Source: Gammaproteobacteria bacterium
GTDB lineage: Bacteria > Pseudomonadota > Gammaproteobacteria > SZUA-229
NCBI GenBank assembly: GCA_026195895.1
Contig: JAPHRO010000030.1
Coordinates: forward strand, 23,910-87,909
Reading direction: 5' to 3'
Length of the DNA: 64,000 nt
Shown: piece by piece, positions 5,637 to 39,950 of the stretch
How positions within the stretch are numbered: the stretch's first letter is position 1
Layout: every line of letters begins with the position of its first letter
Position numbers and translations under genes: made by a program
Notes under the pieces: generated by a model
Database searches by the model: none
Seen by the model: only the letters and a program-made list of their open reading frames with translations
What the model was told of the DNA's origin: nothing

Positions 5637-6125
5637 TTAATTTGACTGTTGCCTGGTCAGGCTAATAACAACGGTGAAATAGGCAGCTATCACCCCCAGT
5701 ATCAAAGCTGAAACATCCAGCATATCAAAATGGCCATAGATAAAATAATTGGCGATAGCGTGATTAAACCAGTCGGGTAGTATGTCAATAATAGAGTCCG
5801 TCATTGATGGTTGCTGACCAATTTCAAATAGCAACTCTACCACCAGCCAGAAAATACAAATCAGACGCAGAGTTATAATATTTGCAGAAATAACCGCAGT
5901 GCTTAAAAGAATAAAAGCATAAATATGCAGAAAAGAGGGTATTGAGTAAATGATGCTGTTCGAAAAGACCTGCGGCATGAGATTTGTTTCCGGCAGGTAA
6001 TTGAGGAAAAGTGGTTGTTGGTGTAATCGAGTTGTGAGATATAACAACACACCTGTTAATAGCGCCGAAAGTGCTGCTACTAACAGGAGTGTCCTGTTCT
6101 TATTTGTCCATTTATATTGAATCAT
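5637..6125 (-). CDS. Small integral membrane protein, unknown function
   Basis: About 160 aa from MIQYKW…; four hydrophobic helices. The ORF-track start at 6188 overlaps the upstream gene, so the internal Met at 6125 is preferred. Immediately downstream of the PKD-repeat protein on the same strand. Confidence 0.45.
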   Translation of the reverse strand: MIQYKWTNKNRTLLLVAALSALLTGVLLYLTTRLHQQPLFLNYLPETNLMPQVFSNSIIYSIPSFLHIYAFILLSTAVISANIITLRLICIFWLVVELLFEIGQQPSMTDSIIDILPDWFNHAIANYFIYGHFDMLDVSALILGVIAAYFTVVISLTRQQSN

Positions 6126-6151
6126 TTTTCTGGCTGATGATTTGATTTCTA

Positions 6152-7834
6152 TTAAGGGCAATCTCCTGGGTTTGCGCCGCAACGGCAACCGCTAAGGGTT
6201 TCAATTTGAACTTCGGCCATAACGGTACCCGTAAAGGCGGCATCAATTCGGTAATACATGTTATCCGCAATATTACGCACCACGAAGGATGGTGAGTTAA
6301 TATCGCTAATCGGATTTGCATGGCTTCGACTAAATTCTTCCCAAACCGCAGGAAGAAGTATCGTGAATTCGGCCTGATCCGGGAAATTGGTGCCATCAGG
6401 AATTATGGCCTGATAAACCACCGAATCGGGAATGGGGCCACCTCCTGCTGTCGCGCTTATTTCATCACTGCCGGCTGCATCAATCTGAATATAAGTTGCC
6501 ACTTCACCCATGTCTGGTGCAAATGGCAAAGCGGTTACCAGCGACAGTGGCGTTGAGCAGGCGCCTGGTAAGCTGGTGGTGGATATACGAACAATATCCG
6601 GATAGCTATCATCAGTGCCATCATTGACCACTAGCCGAACCAGATAATTGCCATCACGATCCGGCGTGAGCTGAGTAGTTTGTGTGTCTAATGATGACAG
6701 GGCAGCCGTGCTTCCCGTCGGTTGTTTAATCAACGTCCAGACATAAGTGAGGGTTTGCATTTCGGGATCGCTGCTGCCATTGCCGTTTAAGTTGACAGTG
6801 ACCCCGGTGTTGACACTTTGATCGACGCCGCCATCGGCAATGGGTAGCTGATTATTGCTGGCGATGACGACCACGCGATCTTCGTAGATATCGTCCAGCG
6901 ATCGACTGCTGTCACGAAAGCCGTCGTTGACGCGCAGTCGAATCAGATAAGCGCCTGCGACATCGGCAATGAAAGAAGGCTGCATGCCTGTTTTATCGGT
7001 TAGCTGTGTGGAACTGCCCGTGGGTCGATAAAGCATGCGCCAGTTATAGGACAGGGGGTTGCCATAGGCGCTGTAACTGTTTTGGCCATTGAGTTGCACC
7101 TGGCTACCGATATTAACGAACTGGTCGGTGCCGGCTACGGCAACCGGTAGTGAAAAGTCGCTATTTTTTGATCGGATAATCACAGTATTGCTCGCACTAT
7201 CGACGGCACCATCATTGACGACCAGGTCGAGCATGTAATCAGTATCGCTATCAGCAACAAATGTGGTTGTGGCTGATGTTGTGCTGGAAAGTGTGGCTGA
7301 AGCAGAGCCTGGCTGGAAACTCCAGTTATACGACAGTGAGTTATCGTCGGCATCGGTCGCAGTGCCATTGAGTTGCACGGTGTCACCGACGCTCACTTCC
7401 TGGTAGGCGCCCGCTTCGGCAACCGGTCTGGCATTGCCGGTATAGGCGGTGATTCTGGTGGTGATCGATTCCTGGTTGGCGCCCGTTGAAGTTTTCAGGG
7501 TAGCAACATATTCGCCGTCTACATCCGCTATAAAACTGCTCATCATGGTGAAATCAGTCAGGACACTGCTGCTATCTGCAGGTTTGGAGGTTAATTGCCA
7601 GATAAAATCCAGATAGGCGGTATCGGGTGCGGCTTCGGTGAAATCGCTACAGCGTCCATCCAGAATGACTCGCGAGCCGGTGCGCACGTGCTGGCTTTTT
7701 CCGATGCACGATAGGGTGGTTTGTGTATAGCTATTGCTACCGGTGCCAATAATACTAAGCAGTCCAACGGCAACTACAACACCCAGTGCAGAAAATTGAA
7801 TTAAAAATTTGTAGATACTGGATCGATTTTTCAT
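6152..7834 (-). CDS. Secreted protein with four PKD/Ig-like repeat domains
   Basis: 560 aa; signal peptide (FSALGVVVAVGLLSIIGTGS); repeated ~90-aa modules each ending L(V/R)VNDG..D(S): LDLVVNDGAVDSAS, LRVNDGFRDSS, LVVNDGTDDS, plus a first degenerate copy; C-terminal Cys-rich tail CRCGANPGDCP. Confidence 0.65.
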   Translation of the reverse strand: MKNRSSIYKFLIQFSALGVVVAVGLLSIIGTGSNSYTQTTLSCIGKSQHVRTGSRVILDGRCSDFTEAAPDTAYLDFIWQLTSKPADSSSVLTDFTMMSSFIADVDGEYVATLKTSTGANQESITTRITAYTGNARPVAEAGAYQEVSVGDTVQLNGTATDADDNSLSYNWSFQPGSASATLSSTTSATTTFVADSDTDYMLDLVVNDGAVDSASNTVIIRSKNSDFSLPVAVAGTDQFVNIGSQVQLNGQNSYSAYGNPLSYNWRMLYRPTGSSTQLTDKTGMQPSFIADVAGAYLIRLRVNDGFRDSSRSLDDIYEDRVVVIASNNQLPIADGGVDQSVNTGVTVNLNGNGSSDPEMQTLTYVWTLIKQPTGSTAALSSLDTQTTQLTPDRDGNYLVRLVVNDGTDDSYPDIVRISTTSLPGACSTPLSLVTALPFAPDMGEVATYIQIDAAGSDEISATAGGGPIPDSVVYQAIIPDGTNFPDQAEFTILLPAVWEEFSRSHANPISDINSPSFVVRNIADNMYYRIDAAFTGTVMAEVQIETLSGCRCGANPGDCP

Positions 7835-32018: not shown

Positions 32019-32630
32019 TTACTGGTTCTGTTGTTTAATGCCGGGCATAGAAATATAACCTGGCAGAGCTTCAATCTGCCGGAACCAGCGTTGGATGGCC
32101 AGGTATTTATCTGTATTTACCTGTGCCTGATCTGCCAGCGCGATATAGGGATAACAGGCCAGGTCAGCAATGCTCACCTGTGAGCCGGCAATCCACGCTT
32201 GCTTATGTAACTGATTGTCGATTATTTCCAGCGTTTTTGTTGCAAGTGTCTGGCATTCCGCAAGGTTGCCGGGGCGACCAAATTTCAGAATGCCACGCGC
32301 TCCGGCCAGACCCGAAAATAATTCTTCGCCAGCCACGCTTAACCATTGCATGACGGAGGCGAGATTATCGGCGATATCAGGCAACCATAATTTATCAGCA
32401 TACTTTTTTGCCAGATAAACGAGTATAGCCTGGCTGTCCCACACAATTAATGATTGATCAATTAATACCGGTATTTCGCCTCTTGGATTGAGTGATAGAA
32501 AACTATTGCTTTTGTGCTCATTCTTTTTTAAATCAACCGGTATGGATTCATACTCTAATTTAAGAATATTAAGGAATAAACGAATTTTGTAACAGTTGCC
32601 TGATTCGTGCATATCGTAAAGTTTAATCAT
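32019..32630 (-). CDS. Glutathione S-transferase
   Basis: 203 aa; N-terminal thioredoxin-like GST domain (…SGNCYKIRLFL…IPVL..) plus C-terminal helical domain. Confidence 0.75.
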   Translation of the reverse strand: MIKLYDMHESGNCYKIRLFLNILKLEYESIPVDLKKNEHKSNSFLSLNPRGEIPVLIDQSLIVWDSQAILVYLAKKYADKLWLPDIADNLASVMQWLSVAGEELFSGLAGARGILKFGRPGNLAECQTLATKTLEIIDNQLHKQAWIAGSQVSIADLACYPYIALADQAQVNTDKYLAIQRWFRQIEALPGYISMPGIKQQNQ

Positions 32631-33139
32631 CAGGCTGTTTCCTGTTTAATTAAATGAGGAATATTTCGGCTACAGTTACTGAAAATCTGATTGATATCAA
32701 CCTTAACAACTAGATGGCAATCCGGCCAGAAAGATGTGAATTTTTCCAGCGGCTGTTCAATGATATTTGCGTTGCCGTTAATTCGTAGACGTTGTTGAGT
32801 TTCAAAATTGATAAATAACATGCCGAGTTTATTTGATGTCAGAATATTGCCAATGCTTTGCATCATGTGATTGCCAATTATTTCTGGATAGTAAAGAGTT
32901 GTGTCAGATTCGATATAAACCAGTCCGTTTTGGTAATTGTTGCCACTACCCTTAAAACTACACTGAATATCATTTTTGCCATCACTGGTAGCAATGAAAA
33001 AAAATTCGCTTGAATGGATCAGGTTCTTATCGATAGAATTCAGTTTGCTATGAATGCCTGTACTTACCTTTCTGGCAATATTCTTATTAGCGAAGGCGTC
33101 CTGTGCATAAAGCTGTTGTTCAGTAAATAGTGTATTCAT
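32630..33139 (-). CDS. Pyridoxamine 5'-phosphate oxidase-like FMN-binding split-barrel protein
   Basis: 169 aa; pattern FFFIATSDG…G.PNFQ-like…LVYIES… typical of the PNPOx-like family; overlaps the GST start by 1 nt (operon). Confidence 0.5.
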   Translation of the reverse strand: MNTLFTEQQLYAQDAFANKNIARKVSTGIHSKLNSIDKNLIHSSEFFFIATSDGKNDIQCSFKGSGNNYQNGLVYIESDTTLYYPEIIGNHMMQSIGNILTSNKLGMLFINFETQQRLRINGNANIIEQPLEKFTSFWPDCHLVVKVDINQIFSNCSRNIPHLIKQETA

Positions 33140-33208
33140 AAGATCTCCGTCAATGCCATGGCGATAACAATGTTGTTGCCTAAGGCGGGTGAGAATTTAC
33201 ATAAGGCT

Positions 33209-33625
33209 CTATTCTATCTGTTGACGTATTGTGCGCATGGTTCTGACCAGGTCGGTAAAGTTTTTCTTACCCAGCAAATCATTCATTTGCTGAAATAATT
33301 GCTGGCCTGTTTGTTCCAGTTGTAGCCGCATAGCTTCGGCTTTAGAGGTTGGCCACACGGTGGAGCCTCGTTTATCAGTAATATCAGCATCGCGACGTAA
33401 CAGATCTTTATGAATCAGACTATCGACAAAGCGAGTAACTGTAGACGGTGCCAGTTCAAGTTCGTCGGCGAGCTTCTTCATTGAAATGCCGGGCTGGCTG
33501 AGCACCATGCGTACCAGGTAGGCATGTGCTGGCGACAGGCCGGTAGGTTTGAAGGCTTCATCCCATATTCGGTTGATGCTGCGGGCCAGGGCATTGCTAT
33601 TAAAATAGATGCATTTTTCAAACAT
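33209..33625 (-). CDS. MarR-family transcriptional regulator
   Basis: 138 aa; winged-HTH GLSPAHAYLVRMVL..PGISMKKLADELELAPSTVTRFVDSLI.KDLLRR. Confidence 0.85.
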   Translation of the reverse strand: MFEKCIYFNSNALARSINRIWDEAFKPTGLSPAHAYLVRMVLSQPGISMKKLADELELAPSTVTRFVDSLIHKDLLRRDADITDKRGSTVWPTSKAEAMRLQLEQTGQQLFQQMNDLLGKKNFTDLVRTMRTIRQQIE

Positions 33626-35163: not shown

Positions 35164-35961
35164 CTAGCCTGCAATAGCAGTCTGGTGAGTGCCAATTGTA
35201 TTAAACCTATGCTCATTATTCGTTGTAAAAGCAACATCATTTTTATTGATCGTGATAAATCCTGTAAGTTCTTCTATTTCCAGTTCTTCGGCCTGTGAAT
35301 CTATCTGCACAAGAAGCCGCTGTAAGGCAAGACCCATATCAGTTTGTCGTTCTGGATCAAGTCCGAGTTTTTTCCAGCTAATTTTGGCATGATTCTCGCC
35401 AGCTTTGCCTATGCAGTAAAAATGCCTGACTAGTATTTCATTGAGTCTGGCTTTGCCTGTTTTATTTTTAAGAAAGGTTATGATTTCCCGGTCAGACATA
35501 TTTTTTTTCAGCGGTAACAAATCAGCCAAATCGTTGGGAAGAAAAGACCGCATGGTTTCGCCATTGATTCTGCCATGTAAAATATCTTCATCGATTATCT
35601 GCTTATAATCAGGCGTTGGGCTGGCGCCAGTGCGCTTTGATAACTGGATAAGGGCCATTGCCTCGCTTCTATGGCCGCTTATGCCAAATCCGGATAGATA
35701 ATGATCCAGAATGTCATGCACAAAAACCGAAGTATTTATTCGTTGTCCGGTTTCTCGTGTGCTGGCGATTATTTGTGGGTCGCCAATTGAGGCATCTACT
35801 TTCCAGCCCCTGGCGCCAAAACCATCATCCCAGGATTTTTTATAAGTAACGGCCAGTCGAATTCTATTTGATTCAATGTGTAGATATTTTGCCGGATACT
35901 GCAATACATCGTGATATGCGTCTGTAAAAGATTTCCGCACAGCCATCTCTCCAGTAGTCAA
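35164..35961 (-). CDS. Hypothetical protein (last gene of MerR-led operon); weak HD-like H…HD…H pattern
   Basis: 265 aa; no signal peptide or TM; VFVHDILDHYLSGFGISGH could be a degenerate HD-type metal site. No confident family match. Confidence 0.45.
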   Translation of the reverse strand: MTTGEMAVRKSFTDAYHDVLQYPAKYLHIESNRIRLAVTYKKSWDDGFGARGWKVDASIGDPQIIASTRETGQRINTSVFVHDILDHYLSGFGISGHRSEAMALIQLSKRTGASPTPDYKQIIDEDILHGRINGETMRSFLPNDLADLLPLKKNMSDREIITFLKNKTGKARLNEILVRHFYCIGKAGENHAKISWKKLGLDPERQTDMGLALQRLLVQIDSQAEELEIEELTGFITINKNDVAFTTNNEHRFNTIGTHQTAIAG

Positions 35962-35990
35962 ATATCTAACGACCTGTCAATTTATAGTAT

Positions 35991-36455
35991 TTATTCCCAG
36001 ATCAGATTAAGCACTTCTATTTTGCCAAGATTCCGGTTGATTGGACAGTCAGGGCAGCCCTGACTTGAGGGCTCATTCTGACAGCCTGCACATTTCTTTA
36101 CCTGCCTGTCTGCTGCTTTTAATTCAGCTTTGAGCAGCTTTAAATTGTTCATCTGGTCTTCGATATTTTTTATCGCGCTTTCGATGATATTAGATACTTT
36201 TTCACTGCCTTCATCGCCGGTTGAACAGGTATTTCTGGTGGTTCCAATTAATCGAATTACGTCAAGAGAAAATCCATTTTCAGCCAGATGCATAATGGCT
36301 TTCAAACGCGCAATATGTTGAGTGGAATATAAACGTGTAGCACCACCCGTTCTATAAGGCTCTATCAGTCCTTCTTCCTCATAGTAGCGAATGGTGCGGA
36401 CAGTAGTTGTTAACAAATCGGCCACATCACCAATTTTCAAGTAGTCGTTTGGCAT
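35991..36455 (-). CDS. MerR-family transcriptional regulator with C-terminal four-Cys cluster
   Basis: 154 aa; N-terminal HTH IGDVADLLTTTVRTIRYYEEEGLI; dimerisation coiled coil; C-terminal CAGC-x8-CPDC. Confidence 0.85.
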   Translation of the reverse strand: MPNDYLKIGDVADLLTTTVRTIRYYEEEGLIEPYRTGGATRLYSTQHIARLKAIMHLAENGFSLDVIRLIGTTRNTCSTGDEGSEKVSNIIESAIKNIEDQMNNLKLLKAELKAADRQVKKCAGCQNEPSSQGCPDCPINRNLGKIEVLNLIWE

Positions 36456-36683
36456 CTATAAACCTACTAATTGCGCTTCAAATCCTTCTGCCTTAACTTT
36501 ATTTAACAAAGTCAGGGCGTTAGTAATTTCTGCATCGTATGCTACGAAAAGCATATGCTCTTTATCGGTGTTGAATTTTGGAGTAATTACACCATCTACA
36601 TGGCTAAGTTTATTCATTAAGTTATCTTTTGCTTCAGTATTTGTTTTATCGTTTAAATGGATAAGTACATCTGAGTATTTCAT
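36456..36683 (-). CDS. Small hypothetical protein (75 aa), first gene of MerR-led operon
   Basis: Good SD (AGGAG-n6-ATG); predicted beta-alpha-beta-beta-alpha-beta-like composition; no Cys. Stop abuts the MerR start (36455/36456). Confidence 0.5.
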   Translation of the reverse strand: MKYSDVLIHLNDKTNTEAKDNLMNKLSHVDGVITPKFNTDKEHMLFVAYDAEITNALTLLNKVKAEGFEAQLVGL

Positions 36684-36689
36684 GGTTTA

Positions 36690-36750
36690 CTCCTGTATCT
36701 CACGTTAGCGTAAGGTCACTATCTCACGTAAACGTTAGATAGTCAAGTTG
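36690..36750 (-). promoter_or_regulatory. Promoter/operator region of the small-protein/MerR operon with direct repeats ATCTCACGT (x2) and ACGTTAG (x2)
   Basis: On the minus strand: TTGACT-atctaacgtttacgtgagatagtgacc…AGGAG-taaacc-ATG. The repeats at 36697-36705 and 36721-36729 are 24 bp apart and lie between the putative -35 and the start. Confidence 0.35.
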
Positions 36751-36988: not shown

Positions 36989-38296
36989 TTATAAATATCG
37001 CGCTATCAGGCCACGCTCCGCCATGGCTTCGGGTAAATGCAGGCGCACCTGATAGCCGCCACCCAGGGCGGCATCCATTTTGTTGCCCTTGAGATCTTCC
37101 ATGTGATCCAGAACGATATCTACGTTGCCAGATGGCATTATCAATTCCAGCTTATCGCCGACACCAAATTTATTTTTCACGTCGATTTCTGCCATGCCGG
37201 TTGCTTTATCATATGAAGTAATTTCGCCGACAAACTGTTGTTGATGGCTCAATGAATTGCCCTGCATATAATTTTGATATTCATGGGTGTGATGGCGTTG
37301 GTAGAAGCCATCGGTGTAACCACGGTTAGCAAGGTTTTCCAGTACGCCAATTAATTCCGGATTAAATTCTTTTTTATTCAGAGCGTCGTTTATAGCCTGT
37401 TTATAACTCTGTGCGGTACGCGCTACGTAATAATGGGATTTGGTACGGCCTTCTATTTTTAAACTGTCCACGCCAATTTCTACCAGCCGTTTAACATGTT
37501 CTACCGCCCGCAAATCTTTTGAATTCATAATGTAGGTGCCGTGCTCATCTTCTTCCATTGGCATCAGTTCCCCGGGACGACCGGCTTCTTCGATAAATAC
37601 TGGTTGATCTGCTTTGGGATTTCGTTCATCGCCCATATCGGATTTGCCTGGTTTATAAACGCCTTCCGCATTTTCTTCGGCAGGTGTTGTTTTGTAATTC
37701 CAGCGACAGGCATTGGTGCAGGTTCCCTGGTTGGGATCGCGATGATTGAAATACCCAGACAATAAACAGCGGCCCGAATAGGCAATACACAGGGCGCCAT
37801 GGACGAAAACTTCCAGTTCCATATCGGGACATTGCTGGCGAATTTCTTCAATTTCATCGAGCGACAATTCGCGGGATAAAATAATGCGTTCGATCCCCAC
37901 GGATTGCCAGAATTTTACCGTGGCATAGTTTACGGTATTTGCCTGAACAGAAAGATGCACGGCCATATCTGGCCAGGTTTCACGAACCATCATAATCAGG
38001 CCTGGATCCGCCATGATGAGTGCGTCGGGCCCCATTTCGATAACGGGTCGCATGTCATCAATAAACGTTTTAATTTTACTGTTGTGGGGCATCAGGTTGG
38101 AAGTGAGATAAAACTTTTTCCCCAGCTTATGCGCTTCAGCAATGCCAATAGCAAGATTCTCCTCGAGAAAATCATTATTGCGCACTCGTAAACTATAACG
38201 CGGCTGCCCTGCGTAAACGGCGTCAGCACCATAGGCAAATGCGTAGCGCATATTTCTTAAAGTACCGGCTGGCGATAATAATTCTACTTTTTTCAT
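36989..38296 (-). CDS. Peptidase U32-family protein (YegQ/TrhP-like length class)
   Basis: 435 aa; MKKVELLSPAG…, …E.HGALCIAYSGRCLLS.Y…RD.N.G.C…CRW conserved U32 Cys cluster; the C-terminal extension places it with the ~450-aa YegQ group rather than UbiU/UbiV. Confidence 0.8.
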   Translation of the reverse strand: MKKVELLSPAGTLRNMRYAFAYGADAVYAGQPRYSLRVRNNDFLEENLAIGIAEAHKLGKKFYLTSNLMPHNSKIKTFIDDMRPVIEMGPDALIMADPGLIMMVRETWPDMAVHLSVQANTVNYATVKFWQSVGIERIILSRELSLDEIEEIRQQCPDMELEVFVHGALCIAYSGRCLLSGYFNHRDPNQGTCTNACRWNYKTTPAEENAEGVYKPGKSDMGDERNPKADQPVFIEEAGRPGELMPMEEDEHGTYIMNSKDLRAVEHVKRLVEIGVDSLKIEGRTKSHYYVARTAQSYKQAINDALNKKEFNPELIGVLENLANRGYTDGFYQRHHTHEYQNYMQGNSLSHQQQFVGEITSYDKATGMAEIDVKNKFGVGDKLELIMPSGNVDIVLDHMEDLKGNKMDAALGGGYQVRLHLPEAMAERGLIARYL

Positions 38297-38382: not shown

Positions 38383-39483
38383 ATGGTCGAATTACTTGCA
38401 AATATCTGGTCGGTTTATCTGGATACTGCCTTCTGGTTGCTGGTGGGCTTGATTGCAGCGGGCCTGGTCAAAGCCTATATACCGGAAGATGCCATGCAGC
38501 GCTGGCTGGGTGGTCGCGGTTTCTCCGCAGTAGGTCGTGCGGCCCTGTTCGGCGCACCTTTGCCTTTGTGCTCCTGCGGCGTGTTGCCTGCAGCACTGGG
38601 TATTCGCAGAAGCGGCGCCTCAAAGGAAGCGACGGTTTCTTTTTTGATTTCTACGCCTGAAACCAGCGTCGATTCCGTCGCGGTGACTTATGCCTTGATG
38701 GGGCCGGTGATGGCGGTGTACCGACCATTGGCTGCGCTACTGAGTGCGATAGTGACGGGCATGATGACAGTATATGTGGATGACGAAAGGGAGGCTGTAA
38801 GTGAGCCTGCAGAACCCTTATCTTGCTGCAATAAGGAAAAAACCGTCGAGTCGGCAACCGCTTGTTGCAGCAATAGCTCGACCCCGACCAATGGCACCGA
38901 TATCTGTTGCGGCACTTCGGCAAAAATCGCCACTAATCGTTTCAGGCAGGCACTGCAATTTGCCGGTAGCGAATTGCTGGACGATATTTCTAAATGGCTG
39001 TTTATTGGCATTGTAGCGGCAGGTGTAATGACCACGATCATACCCCCTGGCTGGCTCGAGCAATGGGGGCAGGGTGTATTGGCAATGCTGGTGATGGCTC
39101 TGATTGGAATACCTATGTATATCTGTGCGGTCGCTTCCACGCCGGTTGCTGCTGGCTTATTAGTCGCCGGTGTATCGCCGGGAACGGTGCTGGTGTTTTT
39201 ACTGGTGGGTCCGGCAACCAATATTGCGAGCCTCATTTTAATCAGCAGGGAACTGGGTCAAAAAGTCACTGCGGTATATCTGGCGGGTATTACTGTTAGC
39301 AGTATTGTTATGGGACTGATTCTTGACGGCCTGATCAGCAATATGGGATTTACAGTCATTGCTGAGATAGGTGATAGCCAACGCATGTTACCCGACTGGC
39401 TGGCTTTATCCAGTGCAATAATATTGTTGATACTTGCCGTGCCTTTTTTAAGAAATCGAGTGATACCATTTCTAAGATATTGA
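38383..39483 (+). CDS. DUF318 (ArsP/YraQ-like) permease with Cys-rich central loop
   Basis: 366 aa; two 4-TM halves; PLCSCGVLP (the CSC motif found in ArsP-type permeases); cytoplasmic loop CCNKEK….ACCSNSS….DICCG with three CC pairs. Confidence 0.7.
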   Translation: MVELLANIWSVYLDTAFWLLVGLIAAGLVKAYIPEDAMQRWLGGRGFSAVGRAALFGAPLPLCSCGVLPAALGIRRSGASKEATVSFLISTPETSVDSVAVTYALMGPVMAVYRPLAALLSAIVTGMMTVYVDDEREAVSEPAEPLSCCNKEKTVESATACCSNSSTPTNGTDICCGTSAKIATNRFRQALQFAGSELLDDISKWLFIGIVAAGVMTTIIPPGWLEQWGQGVLAMLVMALIGIPMYICAVASTPVAAGLLVAGVSPGTVLVFLLVGPATNIASLILISRELGQKVTAVYLAGITVSSIVMGLILDGLISNMGFTVIAEIGDSQRMLPDWLALSSAIILLILAVPFLRNRVIPFLRY

Positions 39484-39575: not shown

Positions 39576-39950
39576 ATGTCTTTATTTAAAAAGAGTTTGT
39601 TTGTTTTAGTGGCTGGCAGCGTGTTGGTGGGGAATCTGGCTTTGGCCGAGGGCGTGTTTCAGGAAAGAAAACGTGCCGGACATGAGCTGACTGCGGCGGA
39701 GCAAAGACAGTTAACGATAGAGTTTTACGAAAAATTTGGACATCAGAAGTCATCACCGATCAAAAAATCCAATAATCCATGGCAGGCTAAAAAGCAGCGT
39801 AGCATGACGCAATCGCCAGCTATTAGCTGGGGTGAGTGTCGGGATTATGCGCTGCAAAAACGTAATAGCTGTTATAAACAGGGAAAGGATGCTTACAATT
39901 GTGAGCGTTTTTATGAGGCGCGGACACAGAAATGCAATCAGGATTTTTAG
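39576..39950 (+). CDS. Small secreted 4-Cys protein (paralogue of 54217..54597)
   Basis: 124 aa; signal peptide. C-terminal domain NNPWQAKKQ…CRDYALQKRNSCYKQGKDAYNCERFYEARTQKCNQDF aligns with NNPWASKKAKQ…CQQFALKQRNQCYAVGNDGSICELYYKARVGHCAEYF of the second copy. All four Cys are conserved. Confidence 0.6.
   Translation: MSLFKKSLFVLVAGSVLVGNLALAEGVFQERKRAGHELTAAEQRQLTIEFYEKFGHQKSSPIKKSNNPWQAKKQRSMTQSPAISWGECRDYALQKRNSCYKQGKDAYNCERFYEARTQKCNQDF

Follow-up and report, generated by a model that had tools for sequence, protein, structure and literature searches.

A predicted self-regulated MerR-type operon with a putative four-cysteine sensor loop, two palindromic operators and a cysteine-less HMA-shaped partner in a gammaproteobacterium

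Gene content and boundaries of the operon

In a 64,000-nucleotide (nt) stretch of contig JAPHRO010000030.1 from a gammaproteobacterium of the SZUA-229 lineage (the whole stretch is called the window here), we examined three minus-strand genes built around a MerR-family regulator. The first is an open reading frame (ORF) at 36683-36456 encoding a protein of 75 amino acids (aa), p75. Its TAG stop codon directly abuts the ATG at 36455 of the second gene, which encodes the 154-aa regulator (36455-35991; ORF and match to PF13411). The third gene encodes a member of an orphan family, p260, which is 260 aa long when read from an ATG at 35946 (35946-35164), leaving a gap of 44 nt to the regulator gene. 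An alternative TTG start at 35961 would give 265 aa and a gap of 29 nt. The ATG is the likelier start because the homologues, 255-265 aa long, are mostly 257-259 aa and their alignment begins at about residue 6. A hairpin resembling a terminator (11-bp stem, T-rich tail) lies 92 nt past the p260 stop codon (35072-35047, minus strand; terminator scan and sequence) and faces a convergent DUF1015 gene.

By their arrangement, the p75, MerR and p260 genes are predicted to be a single operon, equipped with a promoter and a terminator of its own. A sequence-only reading of this DNA had proposed such a three-gene operon, and the proposal stands: the genes are co-oriented and closely packed between one promoter and one terminator, and the statements made about the junction, the -35 and Shine-Dalgarno elements, the promoter repeats and the four-Cys motif all hold on re-check. 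The guanine-cytosine content of the unit (0.41-0.42) matches that of the surroundings (0.40-0.46), and a reading of the unit as a genomic island was rejected for want of such an anomaly.

Promoter and operators in the window

The promoter in front of p75 opens with a -35 hexamer, TTGACT (36746-36741, minus strand; sequence and promoter scan). Right behind this box, occupying the spacer between the -35 and -10 elements, begins a 20-bp palindrome, O1 (ATCTAACGTTTACGTGAGAT; 36721-36740, minus strand), which has 0 mismatches to the 20-bp operator consensus ATCTnACGT-N2-ACGTnAGAT. A second palindrome, O2 (ACCTTACGCTAACGTGAGAT; 36697-36716, minus strand), with 2 mismatches to the consensus, is placed after the -10 region and before the ribosome-binding site, its centre 24 bp from that of O1. 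There are two candidates for the -10 element, both on the minus strand: GATAGT (36723-36718), returned by the promoter scan with a 17-bp spacer, and TAGTGA (36721-36716), which follows from homologous promoters with a 19-bp spacer. A Shine-Dalgarno sequence, AGGAG (36694-36690, minus strand; sequence and promoter alignment), ends the promoter 6 nt before the p75 ATG.

The sequence-only reading had described direct repeats here. The copies are present, with ATCTCACGT and ACGTTAG each occurring twice in the promoter, and they are non-random, since the pattern ATCTNACGTNNACGTNAGAT has 2 matches in the whole 64-kb window against 0.17 expected and 0 of 100 shuffles gave two. They are better described, though, as half-sites of two tandem palindromes. 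A repeat search returned a direct repeat of 19 nt with a spacing of 24 nt and 84% identity (36696-36714 and 36720-36738) as well as an inverted repeat of 12+12 nt at 92% (36718-36729 and 36732-36743), and two tandem 20-bp palindromes explain both. Besides O1 and O2, a pattern search found no further operator matches within the window.

The gap between the regulator and p260 genes (35964-35980, minus strand) holds a TTGACA followed by a single operator half-site, CGTTAGAT. This half-site is not kept in relatives, where the corresponding gap is only 10-20 nt.

The regulator and its four-cysteine loop

The assignment of the second gene as a MerR regulator is sound. The protein matches PF13411 with 68.9 bits (E 4e-19; cut-off 21.6) and PF00376 with 45.2 bits (cut-off 28.2), and it scores 23.8 bits against PF09278, the MerR dimerisation and effector part, just below the cut-off of 25.4. 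Its closest solved relative is CadR (E 1.7e-10), aligned over residues 6-119 and including the dimerisation helix. Behind this long helix lies a loop with four cysteines (the Cys4 loop), C122-x2-C125-x8-C134-x2-C137, and there is a further cysteine at position 77. Scores against the NCBIfam subtype models were 58.6 bits for CueR (cut-off 147.4), 57.7 for CadR-PbrR (151.45), 57.1 for MerR (150.85) and 54.3 for ZntR (167.95), and the SoxR model TIGR01950 gave 31.5 against a cut-off of 116.9. Judged by these models, the regulator fits no named subtype (CueR, ZntR, MerR, CadR/PbrR or SoxR). The four-Cys C-terminus had been singled out as unusual from the sequence; the CxxC-x8-CxxC motif is indeed present, and all subtype models fall far below cut-off. 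The loop stretch CPINRNL resembles the CPIIENL of CueR.

The regulator has two deep clades, a close and a distant one, with about 35% identity between them. The loop consensus is CxGC-x3-P-x4-CxxC. Both clades keep, without exception, its four cysteines, its Gly and Pro, the TGD(E/A)xS motif with which the long helix opens, and a C-terminal LxW(E/D). Cys77 is confined to the close clade and has no counterpart in the distant one.

A relative of the sensor half was also found on plasmid pCMU01 of Methylobacterium extorquens CM4. It is a 219-aa MerR ORF (L111 4776-5435; NC_011758.1 about 367687-368346) that is absent from the plasmid's gene table, and its sensor half, TGDExS...CxxC-x8-CxxC...LxW(D/E), is 32% identical. 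This ORF lies between metF and cbiB in a chloromethane and cobalamin cluster, is accompanied by neither p75 nor p260, and has a different operator; its host is a cultured, tractable source of a sensor relative. A reading of the unit as an anti-phage defence system was rejected, the sole PADLOC match being that of the generic helix-turn-helix of the regulator to mad1.

Conservation of the unit and of its operators

For comparison, 110 related loci were collected: 52 anchored on p260 in species-representative genomes, 48 anchored on the MerR sensor half in metagenomes (a scan that covered the close clade only), plus context look-ups. The three genes occur in the same order in 31 other loci, so the co-occurrence that the sequence-only reading had called for is found. 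MerR-p260 occurs in 12 loci (p75 missing or the contig cut), p75-TusA-MerR in 23, TusA-MerR in 5, p75-TusA-MerR-p260 in 1 (L022) and p260 without MerR in 34. Thus p75 and the Cys4 regulator form a conserved core, and the third gene is p260 or a TusA-type carrier, rarely both. The module appears to move as a unit, because its flanking genes differ from locus to locus.

In the sister form (28 loci: L056-L059 and L064-L110), p75, TusA and MerR are not followed by p260 and stand behind the same double operator; in 7 loci without p260 a DUF4440 gene follows the regulator. The TusA-like gene matches PF01206 (E 2.9e-15), and its active-site Cys14 is invariant in 30 sequences. Against the equivalog model of E. 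coli TusA it scores 45.7 with a cut-off of 78, so we treat the protein as a family member and not as an orthologue. On a rough neighbour-joining tree, the trio occurs in both deep MerR clades and the TusA form mostly in one derived clade, sister to the lineage of the window. By this distribution, the p260-bearing trio is the older of the two forms.

Where p260 occurs without the regulator, a TetR regulator is adjacent in 9 loci, and DsrE2 with a divergent LysR in 4 (NF047629, 218 bits against a cut-off of 210); other neighbours are AhpC/TSA, a thioredoxin-like protein, CMD/AhpD-like proteins and DoxX. At L039, the position of p75 is occupied by a peroxiredoxin. Proteins of the TusA and DsrE types carry sulfur in the cytoplasm (PMC4175335, PMC11094781).

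By far most of the hosts oxidise sulfur (Thiomargarita, Parabeggiatoa, Thiotrichaceae, Sedimenticola, Thiogranum, Thiohalophilus and Chromatiaceae), and the trio loci themselves come mostly from sulfur-oxidising Gammaproteobacteria. Two cultured purple sulfur bacteria carry the distant-clade trio: Halochromatium roseum DSM 18859, with two copies on different scaffolds (L048, L050), and Lamprobacter modestohalophilus DSM 25653 (L045). On three contigs of 2.5-4.6 kb (L011, L015 and L022) the trio is found in Flavobacteriales, Desulfobacterales and Bacteroidota bins; mis-binning is likely, because the proteins are 57-71% identical to gammaproteobacterial ones.

The operator was surveyed in the 68 related loci that have 110 bp or more of upstream sequence and in 476 kb of flanks, allowing up to 3 mismatches. 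Of the 68 loci, 67 have at least one site ahead of the operon, and 41 have two at fixed offsets, at -59/-34 from the p75 ATG in the trio form and at -56/-32 in the TusA form. Elsewhere in the flanks there were three matches, all with 3 mismatches and one of them common to L056 and L057. The operator is therefore essentially confined to the promoter of the MerR unit. Ten aligned homologous promoters show TTGAC(A/T), O1, 3-5 nt, O2 and AGGAG in the same order, and the counterpart of O2 in L011 is a perfect palindrome.

p75, an HMA-shaped protein without cysteine

p75 belongs to no Pfam or NCBIfam family: its one match, to CopZ, has an E of 0.031 and scores 14.4 bits where the cut-off is 95. PADLOC gave nothing usable for p75, and a search of PDB sequences returned noise only. 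The p75 family comprises 169 proteins of 73-82 aa, nearly all of 74-75 aa. The protein of the window has no cysteine and no Cys is conserved in the family alignments; His9 and His43 are invariant or nearly so. The AlphaFold2 (AF2) model has a mean predicted local distance difference test score (pLDDT) of 89.5 and a beta-alpha-beta-beta-alpha-beta topology, and on this model p75 is predicted to have the ferredoxin-like HMA fold of CopZ, Atox1 and MerP. The GMxCxxC metal motif is lacking and there is no sequence match to PF00403. As modelled, p75 is thus the HMA shape minus its defining metal site. His9 and His43 should stand side by side at the end of the sheet that usually holds the CxxC loop, if the model is correct. 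Because p75 is translationally coupled to the regulator, with abutting stop and start codons, we consider it probably the protein partner of MerR or a ligand carrier.

p260, an orphan family with invariant His, Asp and Glu

None of the 344 homologues of p260 is named or carries a Pfam domain. An alignment profile run against 1.84 billion cluster representatives retrieved 121 matches, all within the family, and this exhaustive search gave no bridge to another family. No Pfam match was found among 30 members even at E 10, NCBIfam and PADLOC returned nothing usable, and PDB sequences gave noise only. The AF2 model is confident (pLDDT 85.3, predicted template modelling score 0.80) and has no structural neighbour in the PDB. 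The unit had been called uncharacterised on first reading, and this remains accurate: in profile searches, p75 and the 265-aa version of p260 match no family and the regulator matches only its generic family.

In 70 sequences, W48, H77, D81, H82, E95, R105 and T106 are invariant, and D78, H92, E120, D121 and the loops WDDGFGARGWK and IIASTRETG nearly so. Such conservation suggests that p260 is an enzyme whose metal site is made of His, Asp and Glu. The degenerate HD-like H…HD…H previously noted in this protein finds support from neither profile nor structure, and an HD-domain phosphohydrolase was rejected, there being no profile match and no structural neighbour in the PDB.

We would like to note two further observations on the family. 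In L040, a second p260 paralogue (5783-6451; 25% identity) stands right behind the first and retains H77, D81, H82 and E95, while D78, H92, E120 and D121 are lost. Residue 85 (window about 35692-35694), which adjoins the invariant DH pair, is an invariant Ser in the close clade and a Cys throughout the distant clade (HxLCGL). The family is absent from 72,556 plasmids.

Regulation and possible signal

From the operator pattern, the unit is very probably an autoregulated MerR operon with two operators. MerR-family promoters carry a dyad within a spacer of 19-20 bp (PMC11672702). The dyad is present in the spacer here, and the spacer length reads as 19 or 17 bp in the window and as 18 bp in the distant clade. 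Read with 19 bp, the homologous promoters give TACTAT, TATTGT or TATTAT as the -10 element, and the centre of O1 fits that spacer. On this geometry we see activation by DNA distortion and underwinding as having an even chance against plain repression.

Our favoured reading, to which we would give a probability of roughly 45%, is that the region is a self-contained, self-regulated MerR-type stress module that senses thiol or reactive-sulfur stress. A MerR dimer on O1, in the -35/-10 spacer, and on O2, just downstream, would keep the promoter shut. A chemical change at the Cys4 loop, such as persulfidation or polysulfide bridging, oxidation, or the loss or gain of a bound metal or cluster, would switch the dimer bound to O1, which would then let RNA polymerase fire through the promoter underwinding usual for the MerR family. 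The output would be more regulator together with the HMA-shaped p75, probably as MerR partner or ligand carrier, and p260, probably acting as a metal-dependent His/Asp/Glu enzyme in the removal or processing of the stressor.

As the signal, reactive-sulfur or thiol-redox stress in the cytoplasm of a sulfur oxidiser seems likelier than a heavy metal; drawn as it is from context, this identification falls somewhat short of an even bet. The redox and sulfur theme comes from TusA in the sister form, from the thiol-redox and DsrE2 genes beside p260, and from the host range. The sequence-only reading had arrived at a metal or redox stimulus by way of the neighbouring genes in the window; that route fails, the neighbours (TrhP, an exporter and a secreted protein, described below) not being conserved, and a redox and sulfur theme is recovered from TusA, the p260 neighbours and the hosts instead. 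By analogy, the unit could even be the first persulfide or polysulfide sensor of the MerR family, derived from a CueR/CopZ-like copper module, in which sulfane sulfur, possibly delivered by TusA or gated by the Cys-less p75, would modify the Cys4 loop and turn on p260 as a metalloenzyme of unseen fold handling a sulfur- or thiol-derived stressor in the cytoplasm of purple sulfur bacteria and of large sulfur bacteria. We hold this more specific version to be rather unlikely. Known persulfide sensors, CstR and SqrR/BigR, are likewise offshoots of metal-sensor families that use Cys pairs (PMC8643695, PMC5823870, PMC7315123).

Several features, including the promoter geometry taken up below, count against the module as favoured here. 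The operon has no genes for sulfide:quinone oxidoreductase, persulfide dioxygenase or rhodanese; the only model-organism relative found, that of pCMU01, sits in a cobalamin/chloromethane cluster and not in a sulfur setting; and the protein features are those of metal systems, namely the HMA fold of p75, the invariant His, Asp and Glu of p260, a Cys-rich loop exactly at the metal-binding position of CueR, ZntR and MerR, and a Cys77 whose aligned counterpart in ZntR, CadR and MerR is the N-terminal alpha5 Cys. Such features would suit a sensor of a thiophilic or borderline metal (Zn, Cd, Cu(I), Co or similar) in which Cys77 and the Cys4 loop bind the metal as in ZntR, CadR and CueR, p75 acts as a His-based metallochaperone, and p260 is a metal-binding or metal-dependent detoxifying protein. 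CadR as the closest solved relative, CueR, CadR, MerR and ZntR as the best NCBIfam matches, the presence of Cys77 in the close clade, the cobalt/cobalamin surroundings of the CM4 relative and an SO_0444-type Cu/Zn exporter 1.7 kb from the unit in the window point the same way. Yet the NCBIfam scores are far under every metal-subtype cut-off, the distant clade has no Cys77, the CxxC by which metal-binding HMA domains are recognised is lost from p75, and the exporter is not conserved with the unit. Across the roughly 110 loci, the unit contains no metal transporter, reductase or Cys-bearing chaperone, and its recurrent partners are sulfur carriers and thiol-redox proteins. A metal sensor, at about one chance in four, is a serious rival of the favoured reading.

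Less probable still is a SoxR-like sensor in which the four cysteines hold a [2Fe-2S] or [4Fe-4S] cluster whose oxidation or nitrosylation turns the promoter on. Many of the hosts live in gradients where they encounter O2 as well as sulfide, redox-type genes adjoin p260 in other loci, there is apparently one target promoter, and four invariant cysteines after the dimerisation helix are the arrangement of SoxR (PMC11672702). The spacing CxGC-x3-P-x4-CxxC differs, however, from the CIGCGCLSxxC of SoxR (PMC11672702), the score for the SoxR model falls well short of the cut-off, zinc knuckles are a more usual setting for CxxC-x8-CxxC, and nothing in the sequence demands a cluster. The sensor-half profile does weakly match a DC1-type zinc finger in the PDB sequences (1v5n, E 0.0035), which hints that the four cysteines may simply hold structural zinc. 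Were that their sole role, the signal, bound at another place, would be a small molecule or else a partner protein (p75, TusA or p260), and the regulator would act as a repressor at O1 and O2, in keeping with the translational coupling of p75 and MerR. Some MerR-family members (GlnR, TnrA and HspR) are repressors. The promoter offers several points that would fit a plain repressor: the 17-bp reading TTGACT-N17-GATAGT is equally compatible with the window sequence, the palindrome of the distant clade is shifted by 3 bp and overlaps a TAGATT -10 element at 18 bp, and O2 lies downstream of the -10 element. Set against these, the O1 dyad of the close clade is centred for a 19-bp spacer, and the strictly invariant loop and TGD(E/A)xS look sensory and stand in the family's usual place; we put purely structural zinc on a par with the Fe-S sensor, at long odds. 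It is most improbable that the promoter repeats act as an RNA or DNA hairpin, whether attenuator or terminator-like. Every site is palindromic and O2 could be partly transcribed, but of 81 distinct sites only 23 have complementary bases at the free arm positions 5 and 16, which is the chance level and speaks for a protein-binding site rather than a hairpin. Moreover, O1 lies upstream of any plausible transcription start, and in the window the palindrome of O2 is imperfect, its conserved arm agreeing with the operator half-site. An RNA element was rejected, there being no Rfam match in the window and no pairing covariation.

Comparison with known systems and significance

The unit shares with the CueR/CopZ and ZntR/CadR/MerR modules a winged-helix N-terminus, a predicted long dimerisation helix with a Cys loop behind it, a palindromic operator between -35 and -10, a small HMA-fold protein alongside, and a regulator inside the operon it is predicted to control. 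It differs from them in having four loop cysteines (CxxC-x8-CxxC) instead of two or three, an HMA protein without Cys, two tandem operators, an orphan or TusA protein as its third gene, no transporter or reductase in the unit, and scores under all subtype models. With SoxR it has in common the four cysteines per monomer after the dimerisation helix and the apparently single target promoter; the Cys spacing (CIGCGCLSxxC in SoxR) and the score of 31.5 against 116.9 bits set the two apart, as do the partner genes that here are predicted to be co-transcribed with the regulator.

The likeness to CstR (CsoR family) and SqrR/BigR (ArsR family) is by functional analogy only: these are Cys sensors made from metal-sensor scaffolds, and their operons contain TusA-, DsrE- or rhodanese-type carriers (PMC8643695, PMC5823870, PMC7315123). 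Their CsoR and ArsR folds and mode of DNA binding differ from the MerR fold here, and their operons encode a sulfide:quinone oxidoreductase or persulfide dioxygenase, both absent from this one. The TusA/DsrE2 sulfur relay is met in the same hosts, with TusA in the sister form and DsrE2 beside p260 in four loci (PMC4175335, PMC11094781); neither gene is present in the window, and the relay has no known link to MerR, an HMA-like protein or p260. Nothing relevant came up in literature searches that combined MerR with TusA and persulfide, with sulfane sulfur, or with pCMU01. What is new here is that one predicted self-regulated MerR operon combines a putative sensor loop of a new type with an HMA partner lacking Cys, two operators, and a third gene that is either an orphan or TusA.

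Regulators of the MerR family are textbook examples of genetic switches and serve widely as parts of biosensors; a subfamily that pairs a four-Cys loop with a dedicated HMA protein devoid of Cys and with two operators would extend the family by a new input chemistry. The promoter is clean, short and portable. If the signal is reactive sulfur, the unit would fill a gap in the one major metal-sensor scaffold for which our literature searches found no persulfide sensor, and would give a handle on how the cytoplasmic sulfur relay is policed in sulfur-storing bacteria (Thiomargarita, relatives of Beggiatoa and Chromatiaceae); should it prove an ordinary metal sensor, it is of modest interest. p260, being conserved and confidently modelled, with invariant His/Asp/Glu and no PDB neighbour, is a candidate for a new enzyme fold. 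For experimental work the unit is a solid candidate, with carriers available in culture.

Neighbouring genes in the window

Directly upstream of the trio promoter lies a gene at 36989-38296 (minus strand) that had been read as a U32 enzyme. It encodes the prephenate-dependent tRNA U34 hydroxylase TrhP (NF011996, 770 bits against 534), a housekeeping function. Because no canonical terminator was found between trhP and the trio, some read-through into the trio is possible. Divergent from trhP over an 86-bp gap, the permease gene at 38383-39483 (plus strand) encodes the SO_0444-type Cu/Zn exporter (NF033936, 436 bits, cut-off 300; Pfam ArsP_1), whose Cys-rich insert reads CCNKEK...ACCSNSS...ICCG. 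The permease gene is followed by a gene at 39576-39950 (plus strand) for a secreted-type protein of 124 aa with a signal-peptide-like N-terminus and four cysteines near its C-terminus, which matches no Pfam or NCBIfam family. None of the three was found near the unit in the roughly 110 related loci, so these window neighbours carry no weight.

On the other side of the unit, the window holds a cluster of MarR, PNPOx-like and GST genes (32019-33625, minus strand). A MarR and PNPOx pair adjoins the p75-TusA-MerR operon in L058, L059, L085 and L104, and this adjacency may reflect a shared neighbourhood ancestry or a loose functional link.

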